Shown here: positions 1,845 through 50,837 of the stretch, piece after piece
How positions within the stretch are numbered: position 1 is the stretch's first letter
Layout of the letters: each line of letters opens with the position of its first letter
Assembly (NCBI GenBank): GCA_000092065.1
Contig: CP000590.1
Direction: 5' to 3' (one strand)
Length of the DNA: 64,000 nt
Source of the DNA: Ostreococcus lucimarinus
Lineage: Eukaryota
Made by a program: the position numbers and the translations under genes
The notes under the pieces: model-generated
Told to the model about the DNA's origin: nothing
The model's input: only the letters and a program-made list of their open reading frames with translations
The model's database searches: none

Positions 1845-4800
1845 ATGAGCGTTCACGATCGGTTCCCGCACTCGACCGCGGAGCTGTGCCGCGTAAACGC
1901 GGTGCAGTTTGGGGTGTTGTCGCCCGATGAGATCGTACGTGCATCGAACGCGCGCGCGCGCGAAGCGAAGGCGCGAAAGAGCGCCGGCGCGGGAGATCTT
2001 CGAGAGGGCGAGGCGGCGAGGGCGAACGCGCGACGCGGGCGACGAAGGCGAGCGAGCGCGCACTGACCGAACGTGAAACTTTCGCGCGATAGCGTAAAAT
2101 GTCCGTGTGCGCGATCGAGACGAGCGAGACGTACGAGAAGGGTAGACCCAAGCGAGGGGGTTTGTCCGATCCGCGCATGGGGACGATGGATCGCGGCGCG
2201 GTGTGCGAGACGGACGGGTGCGACAGCGTGCAGACGCCGGGTTACTTTGGGCATCTTGAGTTGGCGAAACCGGTGTACCATCATGGGTTCATCAACGTCG
2301 TGTTGAGAATTCTGAGATGCGTCGGATACTCGTCTTCGCAATTGTTGCTGCACAAGGACGAGGACCCAAAGTTTGCGCAGTTGATGCGAATCAAGAACCC
2401 GAAAAACCGATTGAAGAAACTCACCGACGCGTGTAAAACCAAGAGCGTGTGTCCGTACACCGGGACGGCGCAACCGCAGTATCGTTTGGAGGGAATGAAG
2501 ATCACCGCCGAGTTCAAGCACCGCGACGAGGAGCTGTTGCCGGAAGGTGGCGAACGCAAGGTGATCGTCACCGCGGAGCGCGCGTTACAGATCTTGAAGG
2601 CGATTTCTGACGAGGATTGCCGTGCGCTGGGTCTCGACCCCGAGCACGCGCGTCCGGATTGGTTCATCTTGCAAGTGATGCCCGTGCCGCCGCCGCCGGT
2701 TCGTCCGTCGGTGTCGTTCGACGCTTCCACGCGCTCGGAGGACGATTTGACGGTCAAGCTCATGGAAATCGTGAGAACGAATAAAAATTTAGAGAGACAA
2801 GAACAAAATGGAGCGCCGCAGCACGTCATTTTAGAATTTACAGAGCTGCTTCAGTATCACATCATGACCTTCATGGACAACACGGTGGCTGGCATGCCGC
2901 GAGCGCTCACGCGCAGCGGCCGAAGCATTAAATCCATTTCAGAGCGTTTGAAGGGCAAGGCGGGTAGAATTCGAGGCAACTTGATGGGTAAGCGCGTGGA
3001 TTTCTCTGCGCGTACCGTCATTACGCCCGATCCAAACTTGATGCTCGACGAGCTCGGAGTTCCGTGGTCCATCGCGTTGAACATGACGTATCCGGAAACC
3101 GTGACGCCGTACAACATCGATCGCCTTCAACGATTGGTCGAGAACGGCCCGCATCCACCTCCTGGTGAGACCGGTGCGCGTTACATCATTCGTGAGGATG
3201 GTCAGCGACTCGATCTTCGCTTCTTGAAGAAGTCGAGCGAGAAGCGTCTCGAGTACGGTTACAAAGTTGAACGTCACATGGTGAACGGAGACGTCGTCCT
3301 GTTCAATCGTCAACCTTCTTTGCACAAGATGTCCATCATGGGTCATCGCGTCCGAATCATGCCTTACTCGACGTTCAGATTGAACTTGTCTGTCACGCCG
3401 CCATACAACGCTGATTTTGATGGGGATGAAATGAACATGCACCTTCCGCAGTCTTACGAGACACGCGCGGAGGTGAAGGAGTTGATGATGGTACCGAAAA
3501 TGATCGTATCGCCCCAGGCCAACAAGCCCGTGATGGCTATCGTGCAAGACACCTTGTTGGGTTGCCGCTTGATCACGAAGCGCGACACCTTCATCACAAA
3601 GGACGTCTTCATGAACATCATCATGTGGTTGGAGGATTGGGACGGGAAGGTGCCGAAGCCGGCTATCCTCAAACCCCAACCTTTGTGGACTGGTAAACAA
3701 GTGTTTTCGATGATGTTACCGAAGGTGAACTTGCTTCGCACGAGTGCGTGGGCCAAGGACTCCGACGACATGGCTTTCAGCGTGGACGACACCGGTGTCC
3801 GAATTGAACAAGGCGAATTGCTCACCGGGACGCTGTGCAAGAAGACTATGGGTAGCGGCGGTGGCGGTTTGATCCACGTGACCTGGGAAGAGTGGGGTCC
3901 CATCGCCGCACGCGGGCTCATCTCTCAGACGCAGACGCTCGTCAACTACTGGGTGCTCCACCACGGTTTCACCGTCGGCATTGCGGATACCATTGCGGAC
4001 GACGAGACAATGTTCTCCATTAACAACACCATCACCAAGGCTAAAGCTGACGTGAAGGAAGTCATCAAACTCGCACAAAACAATGAACTCGAGTTGCAAC
4101 CGGGTATGACGATGCAACAATCGTTCGAACAGAAGGTGAACCAAATCTTGAACAAGGCGCGTGATAACGCTGGTAACTCGGCGCAAAACTCGCTTATGGA
4201 TACCAACAATGTCAAGATGATGGTGACGGCCGGTTCGAAGGGTTCGTTCTTGAACATTTCGCAGATGATTGCGTGTGTAGGACAACAAAACGTAGAAGGA
4301 AAACGTATTCCGTACGGTTTCAAAGGCAGAACATTGCCGCACTTTAGCAAGGATGATTTCGGTCCCGAGTCGCGTGGTTTCGTCGAGAACTCGTATTTGC
4401 GTGGTTTGACTCCTCAGGAGTTCTTTTTCCACGCCATGGGTGGCCGAGAAGGTTTGATCGATACTGCAGTTAAGACGTCTGAAACTGGTTACATCCAACG
4501 TCGTCTTGTCAAGGCTATGGAGGACGTGGTTGTCAAGTACGACGGCACTGTGCGTAACAGCGTCGGCGACGTCATCCAGTTCTTGTACGGCGAGGACGGC
4601 ATGGACGCGACCATGATTGAAAGCCAATCCATCGATACGTTGCGTTTCAGCGTGAAGGAGTTCGCGGCGAAGTTCCACATCGATCCAGATGTCCCGGGCT
4701 TTAACAATGGCTGGTTGAGCGAGGAGCAAGCGAGCGAACTCGCGCACACTGCAAAGGTGCGCGAGATTCTTGACGCAGAATGGGATCGACTTCAGCGCGA

Positions 4801-6943: not shown

Positions 6944-7048
6944 AGGAAAGGAGACAACTGTTTGTTTTAATGCATCACTGCACAGTTACGTTGCACAAGA
7001 TTTTGTTTACAACAACTTTCGGCGCCGCGCTCGATTATAATAAACTGT

Positions 7049-8572
7049 TCACAGTTTTGACTGTGGGCGCGTCATTTCTTCAGGCTTTATCCATTCATCG
7101 AACTGTTCGTTCGTCAGTAAACCGAGCGCGATGCCAGCTTCGCGTAAAGTTAAACCTTCGGCGTGTGCTTTTTTCGAAATTTTTGCGGCGTTGTCGTACC
7201 CGATCTTCGGCAGCAAGCTGGTGACGAGCATTAAGCTGCTTCGCATGAGCGCGTCGATGCGCTCGATGTTTGGTTCGATACCAACGACGCAGTTTTGCGT
7301 GAAGCTGATGACCGAATCAGAAAGGAGCGCGATGGAGTTCAGGTTGTTGTGAGCGATCAGAGGCTTAGCTACGTTGAGCTCAAAGTGGGAGCTCGCGGAA
7401 CCGCCGATGGTGACCGCGAGATCGTTACCGATGACTTGCGCGCACACCTGCATCAGACTTTCGCACTGCGTCGGGTTCACCTTACCAGGCATGATACTGC
7501 TTCCGGGCTCGTTTTCAGGCAGCTGAAGTTCGCCGAGTCCGGCGCGAGGTCCAGAGCCGAGAAGACGAATATCGTTGGCAATTTTCAACAACGAAATCGC
7601 GATAGTCTTCAACAGACCGGACAGCGCGGACTGCGCGTCGTGTGCGGCGAGCGCCTCAAACTTATTTGGCGCGCTCACGAACGGCAAACCGGTTAATAGG
7701 GAGATTTCCGCCGCCATCGCCTCGCCGAAACCTGGTGGCGAGTTTAGCCCCGTGCCGACGGCGGTGCCGCCGATGGCGAGCTCGAGCAAGTGAATGAGCG
7801 CACCTTTGGCGCGCACGAGAGAATTCTTGCACTGTTGCTCGTACCCACTGAATTCTTGCGCGAGCGTGATCGGGACGGCGTCTTGAAGATGCGTTCTGCC
7901 GATTTTCACTATGCCTCCCCACGCGAGCACTTTCTGGTGCAACGCCTCCTGCAGCATTTTCAACGCCGGAATCAGCCGCTCTTGCACTTCGTGCGCGGTG
8001 GCGATGGACATAGCGGTCGGAAACGTATCGTTACTCGACTGCGATTTGTTGACGTGATCGTTCGGGTGAATCGGAGACTTGGTCCCGACGGCGCCGCCGA
8101 GCACGCGCGAATTCGCGTAATTCGAGATGACCTCGTTCAGATTCATGTTCGTCTGCGTCCCACTTCCCGTTTGCCACACGGCGAGCGGAAAATGATCATC
8201 CAACCGTCCCTCCACCACCTCCCGCGCCGCCTTTCGAATCGCATCCGCCAATCTCGGCTCCAGTCCCCCCGCCCGTTCGTTCACCGTCGCCGCCGCGTAC
8301 TTGACGATGGCCAAGCTTCGCACGATCGCCACCGGCATCTTCTCCCCCCCGATCCTAAAATTCTGCAGCGACCGCTGCGTCTGCGCCCCCCACAGCTTAT
8401 CCGCGGGCACGCGCACCTCTCCCATCGTGTCCGTCTCGACGCGCCACCCGCGCTCGCCCTCACCGCTCGCCGTCGTCGTCGGCGCGAGCGACGTCCCGTG
8501 CGCGACGATCCGCGTCTCGTCCCGCGCGTTCGACGCCCGCATCAGCTCCACCAACCGCTCCGCGAACGGCAT
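7049..8572 (-). CDS. FUM1: Fumarate hydratase class II (fumarase), N-terminal presequence
   Basis: ATG verified at 8572 (minus strand). [15 protein letters not shown] fumarase/aspartase signature. Family-typical N-terminus [21 protein letters not shown]. Confidence 0.9.
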
Positions 8573-9217: not shown

Positions 9218-10231
9218 ATGACGAACGAGGCGAAGCGGACGAAGGCGCAGACGACGATCGCGACGCACGACGGCGCGTTTCACTGCGACGAGGCGCTCGG
9301 GTGTCACCTGCTGCGAAGGACGCGCGCGTTCGCGGGCGCGGCGATCGACCGCTCGCGAGACGGCGAGCGATGGGCCAAGGCGGACGTCGTCATCGACGTC
9401 GGCGCGGTGTACGACGCGGAGAAGAGGCTGTACGATCATCATCAGCGGGAGTTCGCGGAGACGTTCGGACGGGGGTTCGGGACGAAGCTGTCGAGCGCGG
9501 GGTTGGTGTACAAGCACTACGGGGAGGAAATCGTGCGCGAGGCGTTGACGCGAGCGAAGCGCGGCGAGGCGCCGGATGAGAAGACGGTGGAGAAGATTTA
9601 CGTGAAGATGTACGAAGAATTCATCGAGGGCGTGGACGCGATCGATAACGGGGTGAACATGTACGATACGGATGCGAAGGCAAAGTACAAGGACAACACC
9701 GGGTTGTCGGCGCGCGTCAAGCGATTGAATCCGGCGTGGGACGAGCCCAATTCGCCGGAAAAGCAAATGGAACAGTTCGAAAAGGCGGTGGCGTTGACCG
9801 GGGGTGAGTTCGACGACGTGCTCGAGTACTACGCGAGTAAGTGGCTTCCCGCGCGCTCGCACGTGGAGAGCGCGCTCGACAAGGCGAAGAGCGTGCACGA
9901 GAGCGGCGAAATTCTTTACCTCGAGACATTTTGTCCGTGGAAAGAGCACCTTTACGAGCTCGAAGCCGAACGTCAGATGACGACGTTGCCGAAGTTTGTG
10001 TTGTGGCAAGACCCCAAAGGTTTCCGCGTGAGCACGATCTCCCTCTCGCCCTCGAGTTTTGAGTTTCGCAAAGGCTTGCCTACGGCGTGGCGCGGTCTTC
10101 GCGACGATGACTTGAGCAAGGCGTCGGGGATTCCGGGATGCGTGTTCATCCACGCCGCTGGATTCATCGGTGGCAACGCCACCTACGATGGCGCGCTCGC
10201 CATGGCCGTAGCGGGCTTACAGATGGATTAG
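9218..10231 (+). CDS. MYG1: MYG1/UPF0160 family metal-dependent hydrolase
   Basis: ATG at 9218 is in frame within the long track ORF 7790..10231. The N-terminus IATHDGAFHCDEALGCHLLR is the conserved MYG1 start. The Arg-rich part of the ORF upstream of 9218 overlaps fumarase antisense and is rejected. Confidence 0.8.
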   Translation: MTNEAKRTKAQTTIATHDGAFHCDEALGCHLLRRTRAFAGAAIDRSRDGERWAKADVVIDVGAVYDAEKRLYDHHQREFAETFGRGFGTKLSSAGLVYKHYGEEIVREALTRAKRGEAPDEKTVEKIYVKMYEEFIEGVDAIDNGVNMYDTDAKAKYKDNTGLSARVKRLNPAWDEPNSPEKQMEQFEKAVALTGGEFDDVLEYYASKWLPARSHVESALDKAKSVHESGEILYLETFCPWKEHLYELEAERQMTTLPKFVLWQDPKGFRVSTISLSPSSFEFRKGLPTAWRGLRDDDLSKASGIPGCVFIHAAGFIGGNATYDGALAMAVAGLQMD

Positions 10232-11705: not shown

Positions 11706-11963
11706 ATGCGCGCGCGACGCCGCTCCGCGACGCTCGCGTGCGTCGCGTCATCACTCGTGTCCGTCGTTCGCGCGCACTCCGCCGCCGAGTGCGCGGCGCT
11801 CGGCTTCGTGTCGTCCGAGTGCTCTGTGGATGCCTGCGATAATTTACGTTCGAAAACAGCGTCCGTCGCGCTCTACGACGAGTGCCGCGCGTGTTGCGCC
11901 GCCTCGAACGACGCCGCGGCGCCCGTGACATACGCTCGAGCGCTCGTTCGCGTGTGCTCGTGA
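11706..11963 (+). CDS. Small Cys-rich protein with signal-peptide-like N-terminus (hypothetical)
   Basis: 85-aa ORF with hydrophobic N-terminus and 8 Cys residues. The in-frame ORF 11985..12221 that follows ends in SRDEL. Confidence 0.2.
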   Translation: MRARRRSATLACVASSLVSVVRAHSAAECAALGFVSSECSVDACDNLRSKTASVALYDECRACCAASNDAAAPVTYARALVRVCS

Positions 11964-12633
11964 AAACTGGGACGCTTTCCGGAGTTGAAGAAGTTTCAAA
12001 CGGAGAGCTTGCCCGCGTTGCGCCAGACCCGCGACGTGCGGTTCGATTTAGTTCAAGGAATGTCACCGACGCTCACGATGTACGAAGACGCGGCGAGCGA
12101 TAACAACGGCATCGACGTCGACGTCGGTAGCTGGAGTTCGGACGTCATCGTGGAGTATCTCAAATCAAAGTTGACGCCGAGCCCGGACGCGTCGTCGCGG
12201 TCCTCGCGAGACGAGCTTTAAGACGCCGCATCGCGCGAAACATAGACACACGGACATCGCGCCACGACGATCGGTCGTCGCGCGCCGTTAGATTAGCCCG
12301 CGTACGAGTCTTGGGCTTTGACGTTGACGAATTCGACGACGACCGCGCGGTGACTCGCGCTCGGCGAAACGCTCTCGATTCCGAGCCGCCGAGCGCGACG
12401 ATACGCGGTCGTGCGTCGCGTCGCGTCCTCGTTTTCGACCGTCTCGCGCCTAGCGCCGCACCGTGTAATCACGGCATCACATTCGCTCGGCGAACGCGCT
12501 TCGTCGCGCGTTTTCGCGACGCCCTCGTCTCGCGTCTCGCCGCGACGTTTGCCTCGCGGCGCGAGAGCTCGATCGATCTTCACACTCGCGCTCGCGCCGC
12601 GTCCGCACGCGTCCGATCGTCCGCGCGCGCGCG

Positions 12634-14194: not shown

Positions 14195-15175
14195 TTAATC
14201 GCCACTTCCCCAGGCGTCGCCGAAGGAGGCGGCTCCGGGCGCGCCGCGATTGTCGAACCCGCCCGGCCCGCCCGGAGGACCGAACTGCTGCGGCGGACGT
14301 GGGGGCACGGGATATCCCATAGCCTTGAGTAAAATGCGTGACATCTCTCCGTACAAATGCCCGCCGCGGTCTAGGAGCTGCAACAGCGACATGATGAAAA
14401 AATGCAACGCCTGCGTGTTTTCGTCGACGAGAAAGGAAATCTTCCCAAACAAGTGCACGACGGACGACAAAGAGTGCATGAGCGCCTGCCAACCCGTCAA
14501 CGGCGGCGCGCCGGGCGGTGGACCACCGGGCCCATACGGTCCCATGGGTGGCTGCCCGTACATCCCGCCGCCGTACATCCCGCCGCCGTGCCCGCCGTAC
14601 ATCCCGCCGCCGTACCCGCCGTACATCCCGCCGCCGTACCCGCCGCCGTACCCGCCGCCGTACATCCCGCCGCCGTACCCGCCGCCGTACATCCCGCCGC
14701 CGTACATCCCGCCGCCGTACCCTCCGTACCCGCCGCCGTACATCGAATTTCCGTACGCGCCTCCCCGATACCCTCCGTACATCGAATTTCCGCCGTACGG
14801 CGCGCCTCCGTACGTCGTCCCCGCGTACCCGCTCGGCGACGCCCCGTGCGACGTCCCTCGATTCGTCGTCTCCCACGCTCGACTCTCCGGCGTCGCCGTC
14901 GTTCCCGTCGGATTATTCACCGTCGCCACGGGCGCTATCGCGCGAACGTCGTCGTCGTCGTCGTCGTCAGTCTCTCCGCGTTCGCCTTCGCCTTCGCCTT
15001 CGCCTTCGCGTCGCGTCGCCCGTTCGCTCGTTCGCGCACCGCTCGGCGTCTGTCCCGCCCCCGGCTTATCCCACGGTTTCACCGCGCTTCCGTCGGCCAC
15101 CGGCGTGGACTTCACCGCCGTCTCGCCCGCGCCCGCCGCCGCGCGCCACGGTTTCGGCGGCGGCGGCGTCGCCAT
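14195..15175 (-). CDS. PEX13: Peroxin PEX13 (SH3-less form)
   Basis: ATG verified at 15175. N-terminal PPPPKPW PEX13 motif. Long Gly/Tyr repeat (YGGGMYGGG). Conserved membrane region aligning to human PEX13 (FQSIESIVHAF-like segment). Confidence 0.7.
   Translation of the reverse strand: MATPPPPKPWRAAAGAGETAVKSTPVADGSAVKPWDKPGAGQTPSGARTSERATRREGEGEGEGERGETDDDDDDDVRAIAPVATVNNPTGTTATPESRAWETTNRGTSHGASPSGYAGTTYGGAPYGGNSMYGGYRGGAYGNSMYGGGYGGYGGGMYGGGMYGGGYGGGMYGGGYGGGYGGGMYGGYGGGMYGGHGGGMYGGGMYGQPPMGPYGPGGPPPGAPPLTGWQALMHSLSSVVHLFGKISFLVDENTQALHFFIMSLLQLLDRGGHLYGEMSRILLKAMGYPVPPRPPQQFGPPGGPGGFDNRGAPGAASFGDAWGSGD
14557..14760. repeat. Tandem degenerate repeat (TACATCCCGCCGCCG-like units) encoding the PEX13 Gly/Tyr-rich region
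   Basis: Read directly. On the + strand it produces the artefactual PPYIPPPYPP antisense ORF 14250..15521. Confidence 0.7.
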
Positions 15176-18793: not shown

Positions 18794-20436
18794 ATGAGTT
18801 CTCCCGCGCGTAAACGCGGCGCTGAGAACGCGTCGCCGGGCCTGTGCACGCCCACGGATGCGTCGCCGGAGACGTCGATCGCGACGCCGCACTACGGCGA
18901 GCGGGAGAGCGGTAATAAACGAGGACGGGTGAAGAAGGATGATGAGACGGGGGCGAGCGGACGAGAGTCGAGCGGACGAGAGTCGAGCGGCGAACGGGCG
19001 TCTCGATCGTCCGTGCGTCAGGTAGCGGTGAAGATGCATCTGGACGCGACCCGAACGCGAATGCGAGAGCTGTGCGCGGATTTGGCGGCTAATTACGAAC
19101 GGGCGAGGCGCGCGAGGTAGGGATTCCGGACGATTGCGCTCGAATCGCGTCGGGTCGGACGCTCGGCGCGAACGGCGATGACGCGCTCGGACGATCGCGC
19201 GCGAGAAAGACACTGACGCGTTGGATGTATTGATCATTACAGTGCCCACGCCGCTCGCGAAGAGGCGAGATTGGCCGCGGAAGATATTTTAGACGAGCTC
19301 GAGGAAGTGGAACGGTACGTTTGAACGCACGAAAGACCCGAACCGTTTGAACGGGCACTGACTTCGTTCTTTTTCGCGTCCTTTGCAGGCGACTTCGTGC
19401 GATCGGTGACGACGAACCCGCGGTGGCGGCGATGTTGACGTACTTGTCGTTCGTGCGACGAAAGTCGCGAACGATGGTGACGTTGAACGACATCAACGAG
19501 GACACCCTGCAACTCATTTTGCGGCGAATCGAAGCGCCGTCGCCGAAAGAGTTACTCGCGCTTTCGCTCGTCAACAAACGGTTTCGCGCGGCGATCCGAA
19601 GCCCTACTGTGTGGCATACGCTCGATCTCAGCCGACATGCGGCGACGATGACGAACAAAGTGTTGTACGGGATAGTCAAGGACGACAACGCGTTCGCGTC
19701 CATCGAAGTGCTGAACTTGAGCGGGTGTTCGCAACTCACGGATCTTTCAGTGTTGAAGGTGTTGAACAAGTGCCATCACACCATTCGAGAGATCGATTTG
19801 AGTGGATGCGAACTCTTGACGCTCGAAACCGCGGAGTACATCGGCTTCCACTGCCACGAGCTCGAGCGACTCGACCTCACGGGCTGCAAGCGCGTGCCGA
19901 CGACGTTTTTGTTTCAGAACCTTCCCATCATGCAGTTGAACCTCAAAGACTTGCGCGTCAAAGGGACGAAGCATCTCAACGGGCGCGTTGACGAAGTCGA
20001 CTTTGAAGATCTCGTGGACGCCATCGCGAAATACGTTCGTTGGCTTCAATCGTTCGATGGGACAGTCTTTGACAAGGGTGACGTCCGAGACGTGATGGAG
20101 CTCGTCCACGTGTGCGAGGAGCACCTCGAGTTTTGGCGAAGTGGGAATGCGGTCGCGATCTGTGATCACGCGAGTGAATTACAAAACAATGATCCAACGA
20201 GCACGCCCATGTGTACCATCTTTCCGGAGTGCGGTCACGTCATGTGCGTCGAGTGCTCGGCCGTGGAGCGCCGAAACATGATGCGCGAGGGCGGACGTTA
20301 CGTCTACCCGTGCTCACATTGCGCGCACCCAGTGCGTTTCATGCCCGCGCCGGGCGGATTTGAAATTGTCGTTCACTCGCCCGAAGACTTCAAAAAGCTG
20401 CTCGCCGAACGGCGACGTTTGGGTGGTCCGCCTTGA
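18794..20436 (+). CDS. F-box/LRR protein with C-terminal Cys/His zinc-binding motif; exons 18794..19116, 19243..19314, 19389..20436
   Basis: F-box TLQLILRRIEAPSPKELLALSLVNKRFRAAI. LRR-like LNLSGCSQLTDLSVLKVLNKC. Two 5' introns (GTAGGG...ACTGAC...CAG and GTACGT...ACTGAC...GCAG) join the upstream ORF 18794..19120 in frame. The track start at 19423 is a GTG. Confidence 0.65.
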
Positions 20437-20870
20437 ACGAGGAGTAGTCCTAGCAAACGCCGACGCCGCGAGCGCGTTTTAGTTCTCTACTAGTGCTTTG
20501 CTACTGCTGTACCAATTTTGTAACGCAATGCGTAGATGTATTACGATTCGTACCGTTGTGATCGCGGAGTTACAGGCGAGAGACGAGGCACATTCTTCGG
20601 TGATGTCACGAAAACTTCGTATTACAGGTGAAATGCCGCCGCCCCGCTGCGGGGCGCCGCGTCGCCGAGAGCTTTATCGACGGACTAGAAAGAAGTGGGT
20701 TGAGCTTTCGCCAGGATACAAACCTGAGCGTATAGATCACGCTTATGAGAAAGCGCGCTTACTTACTGTGGGCAGGATAAAGTATAATGTCGTCAGTCTT
20801 TTGTTCGGTTCGGGTTGGGGTCGGCGTCGGGGACGGGAGCTTTCGCTTCTCTTTCGCCTCAAAAGAAAAC

Positions 20871-22055
20871 TTACCTGAGCGCATTCGTCGCGTTGAGATC
20901 TTCATAAGCCGCAAGCAACCGGTCGCACGTCGCTTGTTCCGCGGATCGGATCCACGCGCGCGGATCGTAGTACTTCTTGTTCGGCTTTTCGGCGCCCTCC
21001 GGGTTGCCAATTTGGCCTTGGAGGTACGCGTTGTTCTTGGCTTCGTAGTTCTTGACGCCATCCCAGAAGCTCCACTGGGTGTCGGTGTCGATGTTCATCT
21101 TGATGACACCGTAGCCAACCGCCTCACGGATTTCTTCGCGGGAAGAACCGGAGCCGCCGTGGAAGACAAAGTACACCGGCTTGTCGCTGTCGCCGCCCGT
21201 CTTTTCCTTGACGAACTTTTGCGCGTTGGCCAAAATCTTCGGCGTGAGCTTGACGTTACCCGGGGAGTAGACGCCGTGCACGTTACCGAACGCCGCAGCG
21301 ATGGAGTAGAAGTCCGGCGCGATCGGTTGGAGCGCTTCGTAGACTTGGTAGATCTCTTCCGGCTTGGAGTAGAGGTCTTCCGGCGCGACGTCCGAGTTGT
21401 CGACGCCGTCCTCCTCGCCGCCGGTGATGCCGATCTCCATCTCGAGGAAGCAGTTGATCTTCTTCATGCGCGCCAAGTACTTCTTGCAGATTTCCAAGTT
21501 CTCCTCGATCGGTTCCTCGCTCAAGTCGAGCATGTGCGACGAGAACAACGGTTCACCGTGCTTGGCAAAGTACGCCTCGTTCGCCTCCAACAAGCCGTCG
21601 AACCACGGGAGCAAGTTTTTCGCGCAGTGGTCGGTGTGCAAAATCACCGGCACGCCGTACAGCGCCGCCAATTCCCGCACCATGACCGCGCCCGCGACGC
21701 ATCCCGCGACCGCGGCCTTCTCATCCGCGTTGCTCGTGCCCTTACCGGCCATGAAGTATCCGCCGCCGTTTGAGAATTGCACGATCATCGGCGCGTTCGC
21801 CTTCTTCGCCGCCTCGAGGCACGCGTTGATCACCGGCGACATCGTGCAGTTCACCGCCGGAATCGCGTATCCGTGATGACGCGCGTGGTTCAGCACGTCG
21901 ATCATGTCCTGTCCCGTGACGACGCCCGTCTTCAGCGTCTTCGGCGGCGCGCTCACCGCCGCGCGCGTCTTCGTCGCGCGTCGCGATCGCGACGCGGTGC
22001 TCCGCGACGTCGTCGTCGCGATTCGCGCGGTGTGCGCGAGCTGGCTCGCGTGCAT
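20871..22055 (-). CDS. FBA: Fructose-bisphosphate aldolase class II with N-terminal Ser/Thr/Arg-rich presequence
   Basis: ATG verified at 22055. Matches FbaA along its length (MIDVLNHARHHGYAIPAVN, HTDHC, C-terminal ELNATNAL equivalent to E. coli ...ELNAIDVL). Confidence 0.9.
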   Translation of the reverse strand: MHASQLAHTARIATTTSRSTASRSRRATKTRAAVSAPPKTLKTGVVTGQDMIDVLNHARHHGYAIPAVNCTMSPVINACLEAAKKANAPMIVQFSNGGGYFMAGKGTSNADEKAAVAGCVAGAVMVRELAALYGVPVILHTDHCAKNLLPWFDGLLEANEAYFAKHGEPLFSSHMLDLSEEPIEENLEICKKYLARMKKINCFLEMEIGITGGEEDGVDNSDVAPEDLYSKPEEIYQVYEALQPIAPDFYSIAAAFGNVHGVYSPGNVKLTPKILANAQKFVKEKTGGDSDKPVYFVFHGGSGSSREEIREAVGYGVIKMNIDTDTQWSFWDGVKNYEAKNNAYLQGQIGNPEGAEKPNKKYYDPRAWIRSAEQATCDRLLAAYEDLNATNALR

Positions 22056-24144: not shown

Positions 24145-24866
24145 CTACTCGAACGGTGCGGGAACGGTGTTGGCGTCGGTCTCCTTCTGACGCCGGCGCG
24201 ACCAGCGAGAGACGTCTTCGCCCGCGAGCGTGTCCGTCGCCGCCTGCCCGCGCTCGAACCGCTCGCGGCGCGTCGCCGCCAACTTCTCGTCCGTGTCCAC
24301 AAACTTGCGCATGAGCCAGTGCAACGCGATCGTCGGCGGGTTGCGAATGTTCGGCACCAATCCTCGAACGTTTCGTGCGGGCACCCAATCCGACAACCCG
24401 TTCCCCCAAACCAACGTGTGTTCGTCCACGACGCCGTTCACCCAGCACTGTCGCATCGTGTTCAACGGCGCCGGTCCACGGCACTTACCCACGCGATCGC
24501 GGTAAAACCACACGTTATTATCGTTCGCTGTTTTCGGTCGAAAATTCACGAAACCGTCGTCAGTCGCGCGTTCGTCGTCGTTCGCTTCGTCTCGCCGTCG
24601 CCGTCGACCCTACGCCGCGAGAAGGTCCACCGGTTTCCTCGCTTTCGCGCGCCCGTCGTCGCGCGCGTTCGCGCGCGCGCGCTTCCGCGGTGTCGAACGC
24701 GCGCTCGCGCGTCGCGCGCGGGCGCGGCGCGACGCGCACCGTCCGTCGCGCGAAGATCGTTCCGCGCTTCAAACTTGTACGGCCCGAGCTTGTCTCGCCA
24801 CGACTGCAGGTACTTTCTGCGCGATTCCGTCGCGTCCGTGGGGCTGTCTTCGCCGTAGAAGCTCAT
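24145..24866 (-). CDS. GYF-domain protein; exons complement(24614..24866) and complement(24145..24527), intron 24528..24613
   Basis: GYF core WFYRDRVGKCRGPAPLNTMRQCWVNGVVDEHTLVWG. The track ORF begins on GTG with no ATG. Removing an 86-nt GTAGGG...GACTGAC...AACAG intron joins it in frame to an upstream ATG at 24866 (MSFYGEDSP...). Confidence 0.5.
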
Positions 24867-25069: not shown

Positions 25070-26248
25070 TCAACGCCAGCGCGAGCGGGCGATGTTGAGG
25101 ATGATTTGCGCGACGGCGTCGTACACCACGGGGCGGTAGTGGACGCCGTCGACGGAGCACTCCGCGCCGCACAGGGCGGTGATTTCGCGCGCGCGCACGC
25201 GCACCGCCGGACCGGCGGGGAGGACGATCCTCGTTGACTTTTGGTCGTCTCGTATTTTGGCGTACCGCGCCAGATTCGTGTCGGTAAATTTGACGCGTTT
25301 GTCCTCGGCGACGAGCTTGTCGCGAATCACGAGCGCGGCGTCGATCCACACAATCACCACCTTTGGATGCGCCGCCTCGATCGTGCGCACGCGCGCACCG
25401 AGCGCGGCCATCGTCGTCTTGTACCTAGACACCGATTCGTCGTGCAAAACGTGCCACAGCGCCGTGGATATGACGATCAAATCCGGCGCGTCGCGCTCGC
25501 CGTACGCGTCCAGCGCGTCGACGACGTCCGACGCGTACGGCGCCCACGTAAACGTCGCCTTCGCCCCCCCGACCAAGTCGTGCGCCCAATCGCGATGTTT
25601 CTCCCCATCCTTCGTCGTCAAGCTCACGTCGCTCCACGCATCGCTCGTCGCCGCGACGAATCCCCCGTACGCGTTTCTCGCGCCCGAGTCGCCCAAAAAC
25701 GCCGCGCGCCGCCCTTCGATCAATTTCCCCACCCTGTTCCCCCGCGCCGTCGCCGCCAACCGCCCGAACCCGCACGTCTCCCCCACGTCCTCGCGCATGA
25801 CCCACGCCAGGGCGTTTTCTCGCCCCCTTCGTCCTCTCTTTCCTCCGCGTCCCCGTCCCCGCGTCTCCGCGTCGTCCTCGTCGCCGCACCCCGTCCTCGC
25901 CAGCGTCCACGCGCGCGTCGCGCACGCGCTCGCGCCGCGCGTCCACGTCCCTCGCCACGCGTGCGTCGCGCACCCGTCGACGTCGACCGCGAACGCGCCG
26001 ACGTCGACGTCGTCGTCGCGCGTCGTCGTCGTCGTCCCCGTCGTCGCGTCTCGCGGCGCGTCGCGCGTCGTCGCCGCGCGCGCCGCGCACGCGACCGCCG
26101 CGCACGCGAGCGCGACGACCGTCGCGACGCGCGCCTTCGTCGCCGTCGCCGTCGGCGCGCGCGCGTCGCCGCGCGCGCGCATGCGCGCCGCGCTCTGCCG
26201 CGCGCCGCCGCGCGTCCCGGCACATCGTCGCGCGCGACGGCGCGCCAT
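25070..26248 (-). CDS. Type II membrane SGNH/PC-esterase-like hydrolase (CAS1 N-terminal-domain-like)
   Basis: ATG verified at 26248. N-terminal signal-anchor VATVVALACAAVACAA. GDS motif (FLGDSGARN). Distal D-x-x-H (SVDGVHY). Confidence 0.5.
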   Translation of the reverse strand: MARRRARRCAGTRGGARQSAARMRARGDARAPTATATKARVATVVALACAAVACAARAATTRDAPRDATTGTTTTTRDDDVDVGAFAVDVDGCATHAWRGTWTRGASACATRAWTLARTGCGDEDDAETRGRGRGGKRGRRGRENALAWVMREDVGETCGFGRLAATARGNRVGKLIEGRRAAFLGDSGARNAYGGFVAATSDAWSDVSLTTKDGEKHRDWAHDLVGGAKATFTWAPYASDVVDALDAYGERDAPDLIVISTALWHVLHDESVSRYKTTMAALGARVRTIEAAHPKVVIVWIDAALVIRDKLVAEDKRVKFTDTNLARYAKIRDDQKSTRIVLPAGPAVRVRAREITALCGAECSVDGVHYRPVVYDAVAQIILNIARSRWR

Positions 26249-26776
26249 GGCGTCCGCGCGCGGCGTCGTGCTCGGGTGCGCGCGAATCGCGCGCGTCTCG
26301 CGCGCGCGACTGACGACGGCGCGCAGCGCGTACAGAGAGCTCGTGTGGCTCGCGCGACGCGCGCGGGCGGAGGAGCGGCGAAGACTCGAGGACGTCGTCG
26401 CGGACGTCGCGCGGCGCGCGCGCGCGGCGCGCGGGGCGAACGCGACGGCGGCGGACGTCGCGGACGGCGTGCGACGATTGGTGGGGACGGTGGGGTACGC
26501 GCGAGCGATGACGTCGAGGGTCGGGCGACGACGGTTCGAGTGGGACGAGGACGCGCGCGAGGCGACGCGCGTCGTGGAGCGAACGGGAGGAAAGAGCGGA
26601 CGCGAACGCGTCGCGAACGGCGTGCTGAGTCGAGAAGACGCGTGGGCGTATCACAATAGGTTGATCGATCGACAACACTTCGGGAGACGGTTGAAAAAGT
26701 TTAAGCCGGAACCGCTGTAGACGGCGGGATGCAATAAATACATGAAATGGGACGCGCTCGGCGGCGACGGAGCGCT

Positions 26777-30601: not shown

Positions 30602-31534
30602 CTAATCAGAATCGCTACCGTAATCGCCGAGCAAACCCCCGAGCCCGGCCGGAGGCGGGGATTCAGCCTTCGGCGGCGCGGCGGCGGCGGTCGATTTGAC
30701 CTTTGCTTTGACCGCGGCATTCGTCGGACGCTTGACGACGACACTCACCGCGGGCGCGTCCACGCGAGCTTTCTTCGCCGCTGCATGATCGTCGTCGTCG
30801 CTCTCGCTCTCGATGCGCTTGACGATTTTCGCGCGCTGTTCCTTAAAAATAGCGCGCGCGGTTTCCGCGTCCAACTCGTCGGCTCTGCGCGCGAGACAAG
30901 GTGAAATAAAAGTCAGTCTTCCCGTTCGGAAATTGGCGTCGCGCTCGCATCTGAGGCGTCGACGGCACGGCGCACTCGCGTACCTCTCCTTATCCGTTCT
31001 CGTATTCGCCGTCATCGCGTTCAAAGCGTCCGCGTTCGATATTCCGGCGTGTCTCGCGTTGAGCGACCGCATCTCGTCCAACGCCGCCATGATATCCATC
31101 TCTCGTTTACTCTCCTCCGTTCGATTCTCCAATCGCCGCATCTCGTTATTTTCCTCATCATCCGCGCGCGCTTTCGCCTCATCTTCCTCCGTCGTGTCCT
31201 TCCACGCCTCAAAGTTTCGCGACGCCCCGGCTTCGACGACGTAGTCCCCGTTCTTCGGGTCCGTCTTCATCGCCAACTCCGCGCTGCATCGCGTGCATCG
31301 AAAGTAAAACCTAAATATTTGTATTCCCAAGTAGTCTTCGCCCTTGACGTCCTCCTTGCGCGCGTTGAATTTCGTGCCCTTGCAGATGAATTCGCCGCAC
31401 GTGTTGCAGCAAATCGTCATGGGGAGCATGATTCTGACTTTGATTTGTCCACCCTTCGGCGCCCTGCCGCGCGGGATCTTGGCCGGATCGAAGTCGGGAG
31501 GGATGTACTTGTTCAGCACCTTGCGCTCGCCCAT
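30602..31534 (-). CDS. YJU2: Splicing factor YJU2/CWC16 (CCDC94/CCDC130 family)
   Basis: ATG verified at 31534. Family N-terminus MGERKVLNKYIPPDFDP. Conserved CNTCGEF...C..C zinc-binding region. Basic coiled-coil tail. Confidence 0.85.
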   Translation of the reverse strand: MGERKVLNKYIPPDFDPAKIPRGRAPKGGQIKVRIMLPMTICCNTCGEFICKGTKFNARKEDVKGEDYLGIQIFRFYFRCTRCSAELAMKTDPKNGDYVVEAGASRNFEAWKDTTEEDEAKARADDEENNEMRRLENRTEESKREMDIMAALDEMRSLNARHAGISNADALNAMTANTRTDKERYASAPCRRRLRCERDANFRTGRLTFISPCLARRADELDAETARAIFKEQRAKIVKRIESESDDDDHAAAKKARVDAPAVSVVVKRPTNAAVKAKVKSTAAAAPPKAESPPPAGLGGLLGDYGSDSD

Positions 31535-34456: not shown

Positions 34457-35039
34457 GCTGAGCTCGCGATACGTTTTCAAATTCTACGCTCGCGACGAAA
34501 CGACGCGCGCCGTCAGTCCTCCGCGTTCGTTCCCGCGCGCGCGCGCGCGCGCCCCCCACGCGCCCCCTCCCACTTCCGGGTGTCTCCACGCGCCGCGTCC
34601 GCGTCTTATCCGCCCCCCGCGCGTCCCGCGCGTCCCGCGCGTCCCGCGCGCGCGTCCCGCGCGTCGCGCGCCCGTCCCATCGCTCGCGCGCGTCTCGCGC
34701 GTCACGCACCGTATCGCTCCCCTTCCGGCTGTACCGCGACATCGTCGCCGGCCGTCGCCCCCCGTCGTCGTCGCGCGCGCCCGGTCGTTGCCCGTCGTCG
34801 ATCCGCGCGCGCGTCGTCGACCCTCGCGTCGTCTCGCGCGGCCGTCGATCGATCGATCGATCGCGCGCGCGTGCCCGCGTTCGCGCGTTCGCGTCTCGCG
34901 CGTCGTCGACGCCGTCGCCGTCGTCGCGCACTGCGGCCGCGTCGTCGCTTCGCGCGCTGACGCGGCGCGGTGACTGCGCGCGGTCGATCTCGACCCGGGT
35001 GTTTCGCGCGCTTGAATACGTGAATACGCGCGCGATCGC

Positions 35040-35544: not shown

Positions 35545-35991
35545 ATGGCGTCGCGCGCGCTCGCGAACCTGCTCGTCGCCGGCGGCGCCGCGCTCGCGCG
35601 CGCGGCGTCGCAGGCGTACCGCCAGGCGCTCGCGAACGCGCAGCGCACGGGCGTCGCGAGCGAGGCGGCGAACGCGGCGTCGGGCGCGCGGGGGGCGTTC
35701 GGGAGGAAGGCGATGACGGCGGAGGAGGCGCGACTCGTGCTGGGGGTCGAGGCCTCGGCGACGTACGCCGAGGTGCTCGCGCGGTACGAGCGGCTGTTCG
35801 CGAGCAACGAAAAGGGTGGGTCGTTTTACCTGCAGAGCAAGGTGTACAGGGCGCGGGAGAGCCTGGAGAGAGAGTACGACGAGGAGACGGTGCGAAGGGA
35901 GCGGGAGGCGGCGGCGGCGCGAAGGGACGGGACGCAGGGGGTCGTGGAGGACGGACGCGAGGCGGGGGGGGGGGGCGCGTCGTCGTCGTGA
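35545..35991 (+). CDS. PAM16: Mitochondrial import motor subunit PAM16/TIM16 (Magmas)
   Basis: ATG at 35545. J-like domain MTAEEARLVLGV...YERLFASNEKGGSFYLQSKVYRARE typical of PAM16. Confidence 0.85.
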   Translation: MASRALANLLVAGGAALARAASQAYRQALANAQRTGVASEAANAASGARGAFGRKAMTAEEARLVLGVEASATYAEVLARYERLFASNEKGGSFYLQSKVYRARESLEREYDEETVRREREAAAARRDGTQGVVEDGREAGGGGASSS

Positions 35992-41069: not shown

Positions 41070-41405
41070 CTTCGCGTCCGCGCGCCGTCGTCGTCGTCGC
41101 GCAGTGCGGCGGCGCGACGCCGCGCGCGACGGTTTATCCGCGTCGACGCACCATCCGTCGCGTCTCACTGTTTGCCCATACGAAGGGTGCGTCGCGCCCC
41201 GCCGCGTCGCGCGCGCGCGCGGCACGCGGCGACGCGCGGCGCGACGGCGCGCGATGGCGTCGTTCTGGACGCGCGTCGCGCGCGAGGCGCGAGAGAGCGC
41301 CGGTTCGGTGCGCGCGCGACGCGCGAAGGCTCGAAGACTCGAAGACTCGAAGGCGCGACCGACGCGGACGCGCGCGAGGACTGACGGCGCGACCGCGACG
41401 CGCAG

Positions 41406-46297: not shown

Positions 46298-46360
46298 CGC
46301 GAATCGTAGCGTGGTCGTGTGTAGAATAGAGTTGAAATAACAGTTGGGCGGAAACGCGCG

Positions 46361-47304
46361 TCAGCAAAATGGTAGACGCGTGTTCGCGGAACGTCGAACT
46401 ATGGCGCTCGACACCGGAAACGCGTCGCACGCGCTACCGGGAGTGTCAAACGAAACCGCGAACACGCTTTGTCGAGGCAAAACCAAGGGCGACTCGGCCC
46501 AAATGTTGTCCCAGTTGAGCGCGGACACGTCCGCGTCGAGCGGCACCGGAACCGCGAACACGCGATGCTGACTATTGATCTCGCGCGCGTGTTCGGCGTT
46601 TTGCGCGCCAATTCTTTCGAAAGTCACGTAATCCCCGGGATAAAACGTGTGCGACGCCTCGACGGTGATGACGGCGTACCTAGCGTGTTCGTTGAAGCAC
46701 TGAATGTTTGTCACGACGTGTCGCTGGTTGCACTCCTTCACTTCTTCCTCAACTTGGCCCTGGCGAAGAGGGAAACCATTCCTAGATTTACTCTTTCGCC
46801 GCTGGCGATTGTTCATGCTCGCCGCTCGCCAGTATCCTCCGACGCGAATGGCGCGAGCGTCGACGGCGTCCGGCGCGGTGGACGCGACGTGCTTTCGCAA
46901 CCTCTCGGGCATGTCGTCCCACGAGAGCCAACGCACGTTATTAGCGTCGATGACGGAAAGTAACGTGCGTCCATCTCGAGACTTCGTCGCGTGTGCTTCG
47001 CGATTCGCGCTCGACGCTACGTTGGGCTGAACCTCGCGCAGCACCGGCTTGGGCGTCGTCGTCGTCTCCGTCGTCGTCTCCGTCGTCGTCTCCGTCACGA
47101 CGTCCTCCGTCGCGTCCTCCACGACCGCCGGCGTCGGTTCAGCATCTATATCTACCCCTAGTCCTAATAATAACTTCTTCCTCTGCTCGATCGCGCGCTC
47201 GTCCTCGCTATCGTCCTCCTCTTCGACGTACTCCACCGCGAGCAGCTCCGCCGACGCCTCGTCATCCATCCCGAGCGCCTGCCCCAAAACGCCCTCGATA
47301 TCGA

Positions 47305-47345
<41 letters not shown>

Positions 47346-47621
47346 TCTAAATCCAACCCAAACTTACTCGCCTCGACGAACAAATCACGCATCAGCGCGC
47401 GCGCCTCGACGCCGCCCAACCGCACCAAGTCGTCCAGCGTCGTCGTCGACGCCCCCTCATCCTCGCCAGACGTTCCCTCGTCCCCCGCTTCCGGCGCGTC
47501 CTCGTGCGCGTCCTCGTCCGCGTCCTCGTCCGCGTCATCGTCGTCGTCGCGTCGCGTCGTCGCCGAACCGTCGTCGTCGTCGCTTTCGACCGTTTCTTCG
47601 ACACCGTCGCCATCTTCTCCC

Positions 47622-47658
<37 letters not shown>

Positions 47659-47734
47659 GCAGGCCATCGAACAGACCGTCGTCGTCGTCGTCGTCCGGTC
47701 GCGCCGCGCGCGCGAGCGCGACCCCGGTCGCGCG

Positions 47735-47788
<54 letters not shown>

Positions 47789-47899
47789 GGTCGCGACGCG
47801 CGCGTCGTCGACGCGCGCGCGCGGCATCAGGCACGCGAGCGCGACGCACGCGAGCGCGACGCGCGTCTTCGCGCGCGCGCGCGCGCGCCGGCGACGCAT
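46361..47899 (-). CDS. Hypothetical signal-peptide protein with (AT)n, poly-Asp/Glu low-complexity core and conserved-looking C-terminal domain
   Basis: Internal ATG verified at 47899 followed by hydrophobic VALACVALACL. Microsatellite-encoded ATATAT.., DDDDD.., DEDEDE.. runs. Normal-composition C-terminal domain of about 230 aa. The Arg-rich upstream track extension is rejected. Confidence 0.4.
47306..47346. repeat. (GTCCTC)n microsatellite, about 7 units
   Basis: Direct reading. Encodes the (Glu-Asp)n run. (GTC)n runs at 47623..47696 encode poly-Asp. Confidence 0.9.
47735..47784. repeat. (GTCGCC)n hexanucleotide microsatellite, about 8 units
   Basis: Direct reading. Encodes the (Ala-Thr)n run of the minus-strand gene. 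Confidence 0.9.
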
Positions 47900-48134
47900 C
47901 GCGGCGCGGTGCGCGGCGCGCGAGGCCGCGGCTCGCCGCGTCGCGGCGTCGTCGCGTGTACCCCTTGACTGTACTGGGTCGTGAATCGATGATGTCCTCG
48001 AGGGGGAGGTACACGCGGTTCGTGACCCGGCGCGACGACGCGTGACGAAATATCTGACGAAATATCTTCGAGCGACGCCGCAGAGCGACGCGCGCGGGCG
48101 ACGGCGACGGCGACGGCGACGCGCGACGCGCGGC

Positions 48135-48169
<35 letters not shown>

Positions 48170-48263
48170 CGCGCGCGCGGGCGCGCGGGCGCGCGCGGAC
48201 GCGCCGACGTCGCGCGCGCGCGACGCGAATCGCGCGACGCCGGGTTCGAATCGGCGCGGCGCG

Positions 48264-49232
48264 ATGGCGCGCGAGGACGCGCGAGGACGCGTGGGCGCGG
48301 CCGCGGCGTCGTCGGGACGCGCGGGAACGAACGCGCGCGACGGCGCGGAGGCGCGCGGGACGGCGACGCTGACGGTGGACGTGGAGACGGCGGAGACGGA
48401 GGCGGAGGCGCGAGAGCGCGTGCGGTTCTTCGAACTCTGCGCGCCGAGCGCGCTCGGGACGTGGACGGACGAGCGGACGTGCGTGGTGGACGTGCGGGGA
48501 GGGATCGCGGCGCTGCAGGGGACGGGCGCGGAGCTGATCGCGTACCTTCGCGATCGGCTCGGGGTGATCATGGAGGTGGACGCCGAGCGGGAGCGCGTGC
48601 TGATTAATCACGAAATTCACAACGTCGTCATCGAGGCTGCGCGGATTTTGCACTTACAGATCGAGCAGGCGAAGATGGTGACGATAGCCCCGACGAATGG
48701 CGACGAGGCGGCGACGCCGACGCCGAAGATGGGGCTCTCGTCCTCCGTCGACGACGACGCGGTGATGCAAGAGGTGCTCGGCGACATCGAACCCGAAGAA
48801 CTCGAAGAGTTGCGTCGACAGCTCGAGAGCAAACGCGCGACGAGACAGCGATTGATCGAGACGCTCGGCGAACCGCGAGTGACGTGTCACTTACAACCCG
48901 TCGAGTTGACGAGCACGCTCGTGCGCGTGCGGTTGCCTCGAACGAGGTCGTTCACGGGCGACGATCCGCTGTACGGTGTAGGCGTCGCGCTTCGCGCGGT
49001 GGCGTCGACGACGCAAGACGGTGAGCCCACGTGGATTTTTCAGTGCGACATGGGCGGGTCCAAACTCCACGAAACTGATATTATGTATATTTCCAACAAC
49101 GCCATCTCGGTTCCCGAAGTTTGCCGACTCGTATCGGGACACAAACGGCGCAGCGTGGACAAACCACGTGACGTGATGGACGAATTTTTGCCGAGTTGTC
49201 GCACTGATGTGACGCAGTCTTCTGCGGCTTGA
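48264..49232 (+). CDS. Hypothetical protein (322 aa)
   Basis: The track ORF starts on GTG at 48042. First ATG is 48264. Normal composition from about 48390 onward. No family recognised. An (ACG)n run and a GC-rich leader lie upstream. Confidence 0.35.
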   Translation: MAREDARGRVGAAAASSGRAGTNARDGAEARGTATLTVDVETAETEAEARERVRFFELCAPSALGTWTDERTCVVDVRGGIAALQGTGAELIAYLRDRLGVIMEVDAERERVLINHEIHNVVIEAARILHLQIEQAKMVTIAPTNGDEAATPTPKMGLSSSVDDDAVMQEVLGDIEPEELEELRRQLESKRATRQRLIETLGEPRVTCHLQPVELTSTLVRVRLPRTRSFTGDDPLYGVGVALRAVASTTQDGEPTWIFQCDMGGSKLHETDIMYISNNAISVPEVCRLVSGHKRRSVDKPRDVMDEFLPSCRTDVTQSSAA

Positions 49233-49490: not shown

Positions 49491-50837
49491 CTATTCCGGG
49501 TTGATGACCGCCTTGATCTCGTCGTACATCACGAGCACGAGCGCACCACCGACGCCACGAAGAACGTTGGAGAAGGCACCCTTGAAGAAGGCACCCATAC
49601 CTTCTTGCGCATAAATCTTGACGAAGGCGTCCACGGTGCCGCTGTACAACTTCTTGCCCGCGCCAGAGTTCATCATCAAGCGACGACGAACAGTGTCGAA
49701 GGGGTAGGAGAGAACACCAGCCGCGTTGGTAGCGACTTGGGCCACGATGAACTTGAAGATGAAGGAAGAATCCTTGGTGAGGAGCGCACCCTTACCGGTG
49801 TCGTAGAGACCGAAGTAAGAACCGCGGTACACGATGATACCTTGCACGGAGACGCCGAAGCCTTGGTAGAGCGCCATCGGGCCGGAGCGCCTGGCAATCT
49901 TGGACAAGCAGTCGACCAAACCGGTGAATTCACGGTCGTTAGCCTTGCCGACATCGGCAGCGAGACGCGTACGCGCAAAATCAAGCGGGTAAACAATCAA
50001 CAAAGAACCGGCACCGGCCAAACCGCCCGAAGCCATGTTGACGGCGAAAAACGGCCAAAACGCGTCCTTCGGCGAGTAGCTCGGGAACAAACCCTTGATG
50101 GTATCCTTGAACGCAAAGTTGAACGCTTGCGTCGGGAAGTAACGCACGATGTTCGCGGTGTTACCTCTCCAGAACGAACCGAAACCTTGCTCGGCGCTCA
50201 CGCGCGTGAAGCAGTTGACGATGCCCGTGTATCGCGGCACTTCGCCCGACATGATTCTCGGGTTCGCGTCTTGCGTTTGAATCAAAAGTTTCACGCGTTC
50301 GATCGGCGCCGTGGCCGTCTTCGCGATGGAACCAGACACTCCACCCTGCGCGCATCAAAACCAGCCAGTTTTCCGTCAGTCTCGAGTCCCTCGCGCGTCG
50401 TCTCGCGCGCCCGCGCGCGCGTCCGGATTGACTTTCCCATCATCCTTCGCATTTCCCATCTCACGGCGCGAATCACCCCCAGACTACGTCGAATCCCCCG
50501 CGCGCGACATTTATCTCGCGCCGCCCGATCGCCGCGATCGCGCCGCGTGCGTCGCCACCATCGCCGTCCTCGACGCGCGCGCGACCTCCCTCGCGCGCCC
50601 ATTCCGCGTCCAACCATCGCGCACGAATCTTCGCGCCCGCGCCGTCGCCCGCGTTTCCGTCGAGATCGCGTCGAGCGCGCGCACCGCGGCGAGATCCTTC
50701 AAAAACGACGTCAAGTCGAACTCCTTCTTCGCCGCCGCCGCGAACGGCTTCGCGGCGACCGGCGCGCGCGCGCGATCGAATCGTCCGACCGCGGATCGCG
50801 CGAAACAATCGGCGTAAAATTCACGGTTGAGGGCCAT
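49491..50837 (-). CDS. AAC: ADP/ATP carrier (AAC/ANT); exons complement(50685..50837) and complement(49491..50345), intron 50346..50684
   Basis: Exon 2 carries the [14 protein letters not shown] and RRRMMM signatures. The track 'M' at 50339 is GTG. An upstream exon (ATG verified at 50837) ends ...FLKDLAA. After a GTGCGC...GAGACTGACGG...CAG intron it continues [21 protein letters not shown], reproducing the conserved AAC N-terminus. Confidence 0.8.

Follow-up and report, generated by a model that had tools for sequence, protein, structure and literature searches.

In the main part of the Ostreococcus lucimarinus genome, which is GC-rich and poor in introns, the hexamer ACTGAC, together with its extended form GACTGACG, very probably constitutes the branch-point sequence of spliceosomal introns of the U2 type. 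We analysed a stretch of 64,000 nt from contig CP000590.1 of this species (GenBank assembly GCA_000092065.1), here called the window, and found the motif in all 11 introns that we could delineate there. Shuffling of the intron interiors gives an expectation of 0.20 such introns, and none of 20,000 shuffles reached 11. For the seven introns that are definable without recourse to the motif, the outcome was the same (7/7, with 0.16 expected). An earlier note on this DNA had listed ACTGAC in six introns, at 25, 25, 26, 31, 29 and 28 nt from the 3' AG. These coordinates proved exact, and so did the distances when counted between the final C of the motif and the G of the acceptor AG: 2062 (+), 25 nt; 19212 (+), 25 nt; 19357 (+), 26 nt; 24564 (-) in the GYF gene, 31 nt; 50380 (-) in the ADP/ATP carrier (AAC) gene, 29 nt; and 34517 (-) upstream of the HMG gene, 28 nt. 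When the context of every copy in the window was read, five more were found in a GT...ACTGAC...AG arrangement (14971 -, 20797 -, 26309 +, 30917 - and 41380 +). The expectation that a yeast-like branch consensus would help to annotate this genome was thus borne out, as the motif served as a probe for five additional introns.

Distribution of the motif and of splice signals

Over the window as a whole ACTGAC is not enriched, with 15 copies on both strands versus 19.8 expected from dinucleotide-preserving shuffles. It is the placement of the copies that is peculiar: 11 of the 15 fall within 1.6 kb of intron sequence, and just four are found elsewhere in the 128 kb that the two strands make up. 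The motif is strand-specific relative to the transcript and is found in introns near the 5' end, in the interior and at the 3' end of genes, the last case being represented by the aldolase gene. Its distances to the acceptor AG are 12, 20, 25, 25, 26, 26, 27, 28, 29, 31 and 31 nt. A rigid spacing of 25-31 nt, as proposed earlier, therefore does not hold, the range being 12-31 nt in the window and 10-39 nt in the orthologous introns described below. The extended form GACTGACG is present in seven of the 11 introns (64%). Donors are GTGCGCG (five introns), GTGCGTG (one), GTACG (three), GTAGGG (one) and GTAAGT (one), and four introns end in CGCAG.

Three of the non-intronic copies (27203 +, 36637 + and 42710 -) are antisense to coding sequence. 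The sole sense-strand exonic copy is located in the fumarase coding sequence (7113-7118, -), where a complete C-terminal domain in Pfam indicates that no splicing takes place. We also considered whether ACTGAC is avoided outside introns. Under a first-order model the four copies contrast with 20.4 expected, which would make the motif one of the most strongly depleted hexamers; the expectation falls, however, to 5.9 under a fourth-order model, and codon shuffling within genes yields 3.35 sense copies versus one observed (P=0.14). Since the fivefold depletion vanishes under these higher-order and codon-aware null models, avoidance of ACTGAC is not demonstrated at this sample size. Conversely, a scan for WCTRAY with plausible donor and acceptor in all non-coding intervals gave three weak sites (1667 -, 46078 + and 48053 +), none of them in a gene context. 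No convincing intron without ACTGAC thus emerged from sequence-based scanning of the window; from the literature, about one in eight introns would be expected not to have it.

Introns removed in transcripts

In contigs derived from transcripts, the introns of the aldolase and AAC genes are precisely missing, with the junctions at the predicted sites. The gene for class II fructose-bisphosphate aldolase contains a newly found terminal intron of 109 nt (20766-20874, -) with donor GTAAGTT and GACTGACG at 20792-20797, 26 nt from the AG. Its donor overlaps the stop-codon context (CTC AG/GTAAGT), such that the C-terminus reads ..NALR* without splicing and ..NALSK* after splicing. Two JGI contigs (L094 and L095) comprise the window sequence minus exactly 20874-20766, and the protein P0320 ends in NALSK. 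The intron is missing in two other Ostreococcus species (L012 and L014), in which the C-terminus is ..GALDGVTLQ*, and it may represent a lineage-specific gain.

The AAC intron is the longest of the set (50346-50684, -; 339 nt, phase 0), with donor GTGCGCG, GACTGACG at 50375-50380 and a CGCAG acceptor 29 nt downstream of the motif. In the Logan contig L096, AAC exon 1 is directly joined to exon 2. The spliced product shares 92% identity with the O. tauri AAC along its entire length, including the junction FLKDLAA/GGVSGS; the O. tauri annotation agrees with this intron, which retains ACTGAC at 27 nt.

Introns supported by reading frames and orthologues

Ten of the 11 introns are supported independently of the motif, the exception being the candidate in the HMG-box gene. 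In RPB1, the intron at 1935-2092 (+; 158 nt, phase 0) has donor GTACGTG, CACTGACC at 2062-2067 and acceptor ATAG, 25 nt from motif to AG. Splicing joins ..VQFGVLSPDEI to RKMSVCAIET.. and restores the conserved N-terminus. In a Micromonas-like relative (L005), an intron without ACTGAC interrupts RPB1 at the identical codon, flanked by matching peptides. This contig has a GC content of 65%, and its RPB1 is 85% identical; the first RPB1 intron (1568-1699, +) starts with GTGCGT, and no ACTGAC was found in 10 kb. An extra long intron occurs further into the same gene (approximately 1880-2340, +).

The F-box/LRR gene, whose start is ATG 18794, contains two introns that link three conserved open frames; in the exon 1 peptide, conservation extends from MSSP..K on. 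Intron 1 (19117-19242, +; 126 nt, phase 2) has donor GTAGGGA and the motif at 19212-19217, 25 nt from the AG. It joins open frames, with a TAG stop at the donor. Orthologues of this intron in L008, L012 and L014 all contain ACTGAC, with donors GTACGGG, GTGCGTG and GTGCGTT. Intron 2 (19315-19388, +; 74 nt, phase 2) starts with GTACGTT, carries the motif at 19357-19362 (26 nt to AG) and possesses a pyrimidine-rich tail with acceptor GCAG; its removal connects exon 2 in frame with the F-box open reading frame (ORF). Its orthologues in the same three contigs retain ACTGAC at 22-26 nt.

For the GYF-domain gene the intron spans 24528-24739 (-; 212 nt, phase 1), with GACTGACG at 24559-24564, 31 nt from the AG. 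The donors reported earlier for five introns (GTACGT twice, GTAGGG twice and GTGCGC once) could be confirmed except for this gene, where the donor is most likely GTGCGCG at 24739 and not GTAGGG at 24613. Both donors are in phase 1. Three observations favour the upstream donor at 24739, with GTAGGG 24613 then lying inside the intron: in a four-species alignment, exon conservation ends at 24739; the disputed 126 nt contain two 1-nt indels relative to the closest sister species; and the product of 169 aa spliced via 24739 is exactly identical to XP_001420121.1, whereas the model using 24613 is not on record. The orthologous intron in L011 contains ACTGAC, that in L012 a tandem GACTGACGACTGACG (1479-1491, +), and that in L014 (approximately 9320-9330, +) the single-mismatch variant GATTGACG (ATTGAC), 30 nt from the acceptor.

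The earlier note had further suspected that short introns are hidden in GC-rich ORF-like sequence. This turned out to be correct, as we newly found three introns (105, 99 and 51 nt) that are in frame and stop-free. The first lies in the gene for a G/Y-rich protein (14195-15175, -) at 14935-15039 (-), with donor GTGCGCG and GACTGACG at 14966-14971, 31 nt from the AG. The orthologue in L008 (4508-5374) is short by exactly 35 residues at the intron site, where the intron is precisely absent; in L012 and L015 the intron is longer (152 and 192 nt) and has GTGCG donors as well as GACTGACG, and the L015 copy contains in-frame stops. The window copy also holds the short tandem repeats (GAAGGC)4 and (GAC)6. 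The second is located in the gene for the splicing factor Yju2/CCDC94 (30885-30983, -) and has donor GTACGCG, GACTGACT at 30912-30917 and acceptor CGCAG, 27 nt from motif to AG. The Yju2 genes of L014 and L017 carry an 84-nt intron at the matching site, with GTACGGG and GACTGACG and otherwise unrelated intron sequence. An alignment with human YJU2 leaves 33 surplus window residues at the intron, equal to the intron length, in what is a weak part of the alignment. The third and shortest intron (26276-26326, +) belongs to a gene for a protein of 140 aa (26247-26720, +). It has donor GTGCGCG, GACTGACG at 26309-26314 and acceptor CGCAG, with only 12 nt to the AG. Its orthologues, of 48 nt in L011 and 63 nt in L014 (spacings 10 and 16, respectively), retain GTGCG...GACTGACG...CGCAG, and all three introns end directly before the conserved exon sequence CGCGTACAG.

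A further new intron was found in the gene for a mitochondrial inner-membrane peptidase (S26) at 41308-41405 (+; 98 nt, phase 0), with donor GTGCGCG, GACTGACG at 41380-41385 and acceptor CGCAG, 20 nt from the motif. The O. tauri orthologue (L007) is annotated with a 97-nt intron at the corresponding place, showing GTGCGTC and GACTGACT. The protein matches S26 in Pfam, and its first-exon peptide is conserved; because exon 2 of the O. tauri gene lacks a start codon, this first exon is required. The window intron additionally holds the short tandem repeat (CTCGAAGA)3. Finally, a candidate 5' intron of the HMG-box gene (34484-34709, -; 226 nt) has donor GTGCGTG, GACTGACG at 34512-34517 and acceptor GTAG, 28 nt from the motif, and would be preceded by a first exon of 11 codons (34742-34710), joined in frame.

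Conservation in other Ostreococcus lineages

Orthologous loci were available from O. tauri (L007), an ENA contig (L008) and the JGI metagenome contigs L011, L012 and L013-L017, the latter representing at least three further Ostreococcus lineages. From L007, L008, L011, L012, L014, L015 and L017 we took 22 orthologous introns of other species or strains, of which 21 contain ACTGAC; the GYF intron of L014 has ATTGAC. These introns differ from their window counterparts in length and in the remaining sequence, and identity falls sharply at the donor. Their spacings are 10-39 nt and their donors mostly GTGCGT or GTGCGC. A motif that is kept while the intron around it diverges bears the signature of a selected splicing signal rather than of shared descent from a repeat.

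Two O. tauri genes of contig KZ155832.1 (L007, 11332-12408 - and 13036-14922 +) are annotated with 3'-terminal introns that do not contain ACTGAC and are probably gene-model artefacts. These introns prolong the ORFs into sequence whose translation resembles that of non-coding DNA, and the window orthologues (approximately 48042-49232 + and 46361-48571 -) show no such 3'-terminal introns.

Comparison with published introns

Branch motif, extended form, donor and spacing have already been published for this genome by Irimia and Roy (PLoS Genet 2008, 4:e1000148; PMC2483917), so that our observation is a rediscovery and not new. Their analysis covered 319 introns outside chromosome 2 that were confirmed by expressed sequence tags (ESTs). 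The comparison with published intron models suggested in the earlier note shows agreement on motif, extended form, donor, acceptor and spacing. ACTGAC was reported for 87.2% of these introns (11/11 in the window) and GACTGACG for 66.5% (7/11). The atypical donor consensus GTGCGTG corresponds to GTGCG[C/T]G in 6/11 window introns, and the preference for CGCAG at the 3' end to 4/11. The distance from branch to AG was described as a broad peak at about 20-35 nt; 10 of the 11 window introns lie in this band, and the spacing of 12 nt is outside it. The window goes beyond that study in this 12-nt spacing, in the intron that overlaps a stop codon, in the three in-frame stop-free introns and in conservation orthologue by orthologue, which was merely hinted at there for O. 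tauri. As a discovery the motif thus has little weight, since it belongs to what is commonly described as the convergent strengthening of signals in intron-poor eukaryotes; the added value consists in the corrected GYF donor, the five extra introns and the orthologue-level conservation data.

Genomes that retain few introns usually have near-invariant splice signals. There is a likeness to the yeast-type UACUAAC of hemiascomycetes and other intron-poor eukaryotes, with which the window shares a near-invariant branch hexamer, a low number of introns, the location of most introns near the 5' ends of genes and a strongly constrained donor. The differences are that the window uses ACTGAC instead of ACTAAC, which would replace an A-U pair with U2 by a G-U wobble, that its donor is GTGCGYG and not GTATGT, and that its introns are GC-rich. 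As the yeast and Ostreococcus lineages are unrelated, the likeness of their branch signals is a case of convergence. No donor or branch region among the 11 window introns resembles the consensus of U12-type introns, which have the donor [AG]TATCCTT and, at 10-15 nt from the acceptor, the branch sequence TCCTTAAC.

A different type of intron is known from the low-GC outlier regions of the Mamiellales (half of chromosome 2 in Ostreococcus, BOC1 in Bathycoccus), where introns are 40-65 nt long, AT-rich, very dense and devoid of a detectable branch or splice consensus (PMC3491373; PMC2483917). The genus and the splicing machinery are common to both types, whereas the window introns measure 51-339 nt, have 51-80% GC, are sparse and all carry the motif. 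On chromosome 2 of the present genome, these weak-signal, variable introns are abundant and also spliced, and only 4.6% of them share any branch hexamer (PMC2483917). The introner elements of Micromonas pusilla, which have recognisable branch points (PMC4815162), show full-length similarity in thousands of copies, whereas the window introns share splice signals only.

The branch point and alternative explanations

If ACTGAC acts as the branch-point signal, the second A of ACUGAC (position 5) would be the branch adenosine, and the flanking bases would pair with the branch-recognition box GUAGUA of the U2 small nuclear RNA (snRNA), as in the case of yeast UACUAAC, with a G-U wobble at position 4. 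The U2 branch box generally pairs with the branch site, and ACUGAC fits the consensus CURAY. The first usable AG located 10-40 nt downstream would then be taken as the acceptor. The motif is accompanied by a donor of unusual uniformity (GTGCG[C/T]G) and by an acceptor of the CGCAG type.

Several points weigh against this interpretation. The branch role is suggested by position, similarity to CTRAY and conservation, and the pairing scheme with U2 is a prediction. ACTGAC is not strictly necessary, as one orthologue has ATTGAC and about 13% of the confirmed introns do not contain the motif (PMC2483917). Neither is it sufficient, for the sense-strand copy in the fumarase coding sequence remains unspliced. 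In addition, the HMG intron, suggested by its signals and its frame, is the least certain of the 11.

Among the alternatives, one could argue that the hexamer ACTGAC is nothing special and lies near an AG by coincidence in a few GC-rich gaps between ORFs, and its lack of overall enrichment (15 copies, 19.8 expected) would be in line with that. We regard chance as practically negligible: the concentration of 11 of 15 copies in 1.6 kb of intron, where 0.2 would be expected, and the retention of the motif in 21 of 22 orthologous introns despite diverged flanks already refute it, and the same motif was published from 319 EST-confirmed introns (PMC2483917). The sites are real spliceosomal introns, as had been assumed in the earlier note, and not coincidental, given these counts, the orthologues and the transcript contigs. 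It is also very improbable that the motif was inherited from a common element within a mobile, introner-like intron family. The related M. pusilla does have introner elements with recognisable branch points (PMC4815162), and the aldolase intron, being species-specific among the species compared, is possibly a recent gain. However, comparing all 11 introns with each other and each with the window yielded only CG-rich low-complexity matches; four of them (aldolase, both F-box introns and Yju2) match only themselves, lengths are spread from 51 to 339 nt, and most of the introns are old, their position being common across species.

ACTGAC could furthermore be another intronic element, either the site of a splicing regulator or a transcriptional element of 5' introns, with the branch located elsewhere. 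For this one may adduce that most introns lie near the 5' ends of genes, where regulatory elements are also situated. We nevertheless deem it very unlikely, since the motif conforms to CTRAY, the universal consensus for branch sites, including the position of the A, stands at branch-typical distances from the acceptor, is strand-specific to the transcript and is found in 5', internal and 3'-terminal introns alike. Less remote, yet still unlikely, is a reduced or altered spliceosome restricted to near-consensus sites, the "streamlined" spliceosome for which the earlier note had argued. Intron-poor lineages repeatedly have strong consensus signals, and the atypical donor GTGCG[C/T]G could hint at co-evolved snRNAs, a thought raised in PMC2483917. 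On the other hand, hundreds of chromosome-2 introns with weak donors are spliced in this same genome, and in O. tauri the spliceosomal RNAs turned up in single copies only; the authors consider a changed spliceosome unlikely and favour one unchanged spliceosome that is scarce relative to introns (PMC2483917). The window itself uses GTAAGT, with transcript proof, as well as GTAGGG and GTACG donors, and contains nothing that bears on spliceosome composition. A streamlined spliceosome is thus not supported, and a branch-point signal of ordinary U2-type introns remains the explanation that we prefer.

Consequences for annotation

Tentatively, current O. lucimarinus gene models may miss or mis-model introns such as that of the aldolase gene and the three in-frame stop-free ones, which would read as low-complexity insertions in the proteins. 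Of nine other spliced models, seven (AAC, F-box, G/Y-rich, Yju2, 140-aa, S26 and HMG) had no exact counterpart on record; this neither confirms nor refutes them, and it fits missed introns but equally well different start codons in the reference. If such cases were to occur genome-wide, the number and turnover of Ostreococcus introns (species-specific gain, precise loss) would be underestimated, and some annotated proteins would carry unspliced intron sequence. As an annotation aid, a scan for GT[GA][CA]G...GACTGACG...N10-40...AG recovers introns that are invisible to ORF logic. For the study of intron gain and loss, the intron overlapping a stop codon, the precise absence in a sister species, the tandem branch motif and the ATTGAC variant are of use.

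Two attempts were given up. The provisional names "PEX13-like" and "LYR-like" for two of the intron-bearing genes had no backing by Pfam and were dropped, and a tblastx search of the intergenic intervals against related loci for unannotated exons was swamped by Arg/Ala-rich low-complexity matches.

Gene content of the window

The window is eukaryotic and compact, with a GC content of about 62% overall (52-70% per 2-kb bin) and approximately one gene per 2.5 kb. The previous suggestion of a member of the Mamiellophyceae was right, as the DNA is that of O. lucimarinus. Its dehydrogenase (HADH), ABCG transporter and spliced GYF protein are residue for residue identical to XP_001420120.1, XP_001420124.1 and XP_001420121.1, respectively, of O. 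lucimarinus CCE9901 (RefSeq), all of them located on one record, and gene order around the AAC gene agrees with O. tauri contig KZ155832.1. Composition per 2-kb bin revealed no dense small AT-rich introns in the window. Judging from this absence, the size of the record and the GC content, the window appears to lie outside the atypical low-GC half of chromosome 2. At Rfam gathering thresholds, no snRNA (U2 included) or other RNA family was found in the window.

Recognisable genes include those for RPB1, fumarase, MYG1, a DnaJ-thioredoxin protein, WD40, RING and F-box/LRR proteins, class II aldolase, a 2-hydroxyacid dehydrogenase, the GYF protein, kinases, ABCG, Yju2, MFS, HMG, NatB, mitochondrial carriers, FtsH and synoviolin, among others. 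Between the HMG and NatB genes lies a small intronless gene (35545-35988, +) for Pam16 of the mitochondrial import motor, a region that appears as overlapping GC-rich ORFs in ORF lists. A selenoprotein gene of the Sep15/SelM family (11706-12221, +; Pfam PF08806, E=1.3e-9) is cut in two by ORF-based callers; its in-frame TGA (11961-11963) lies within ..VRVCS-U-KLGRFPE.., the C-terminus is RDEL, and an orthologue is present in L008 at 2222-2419.

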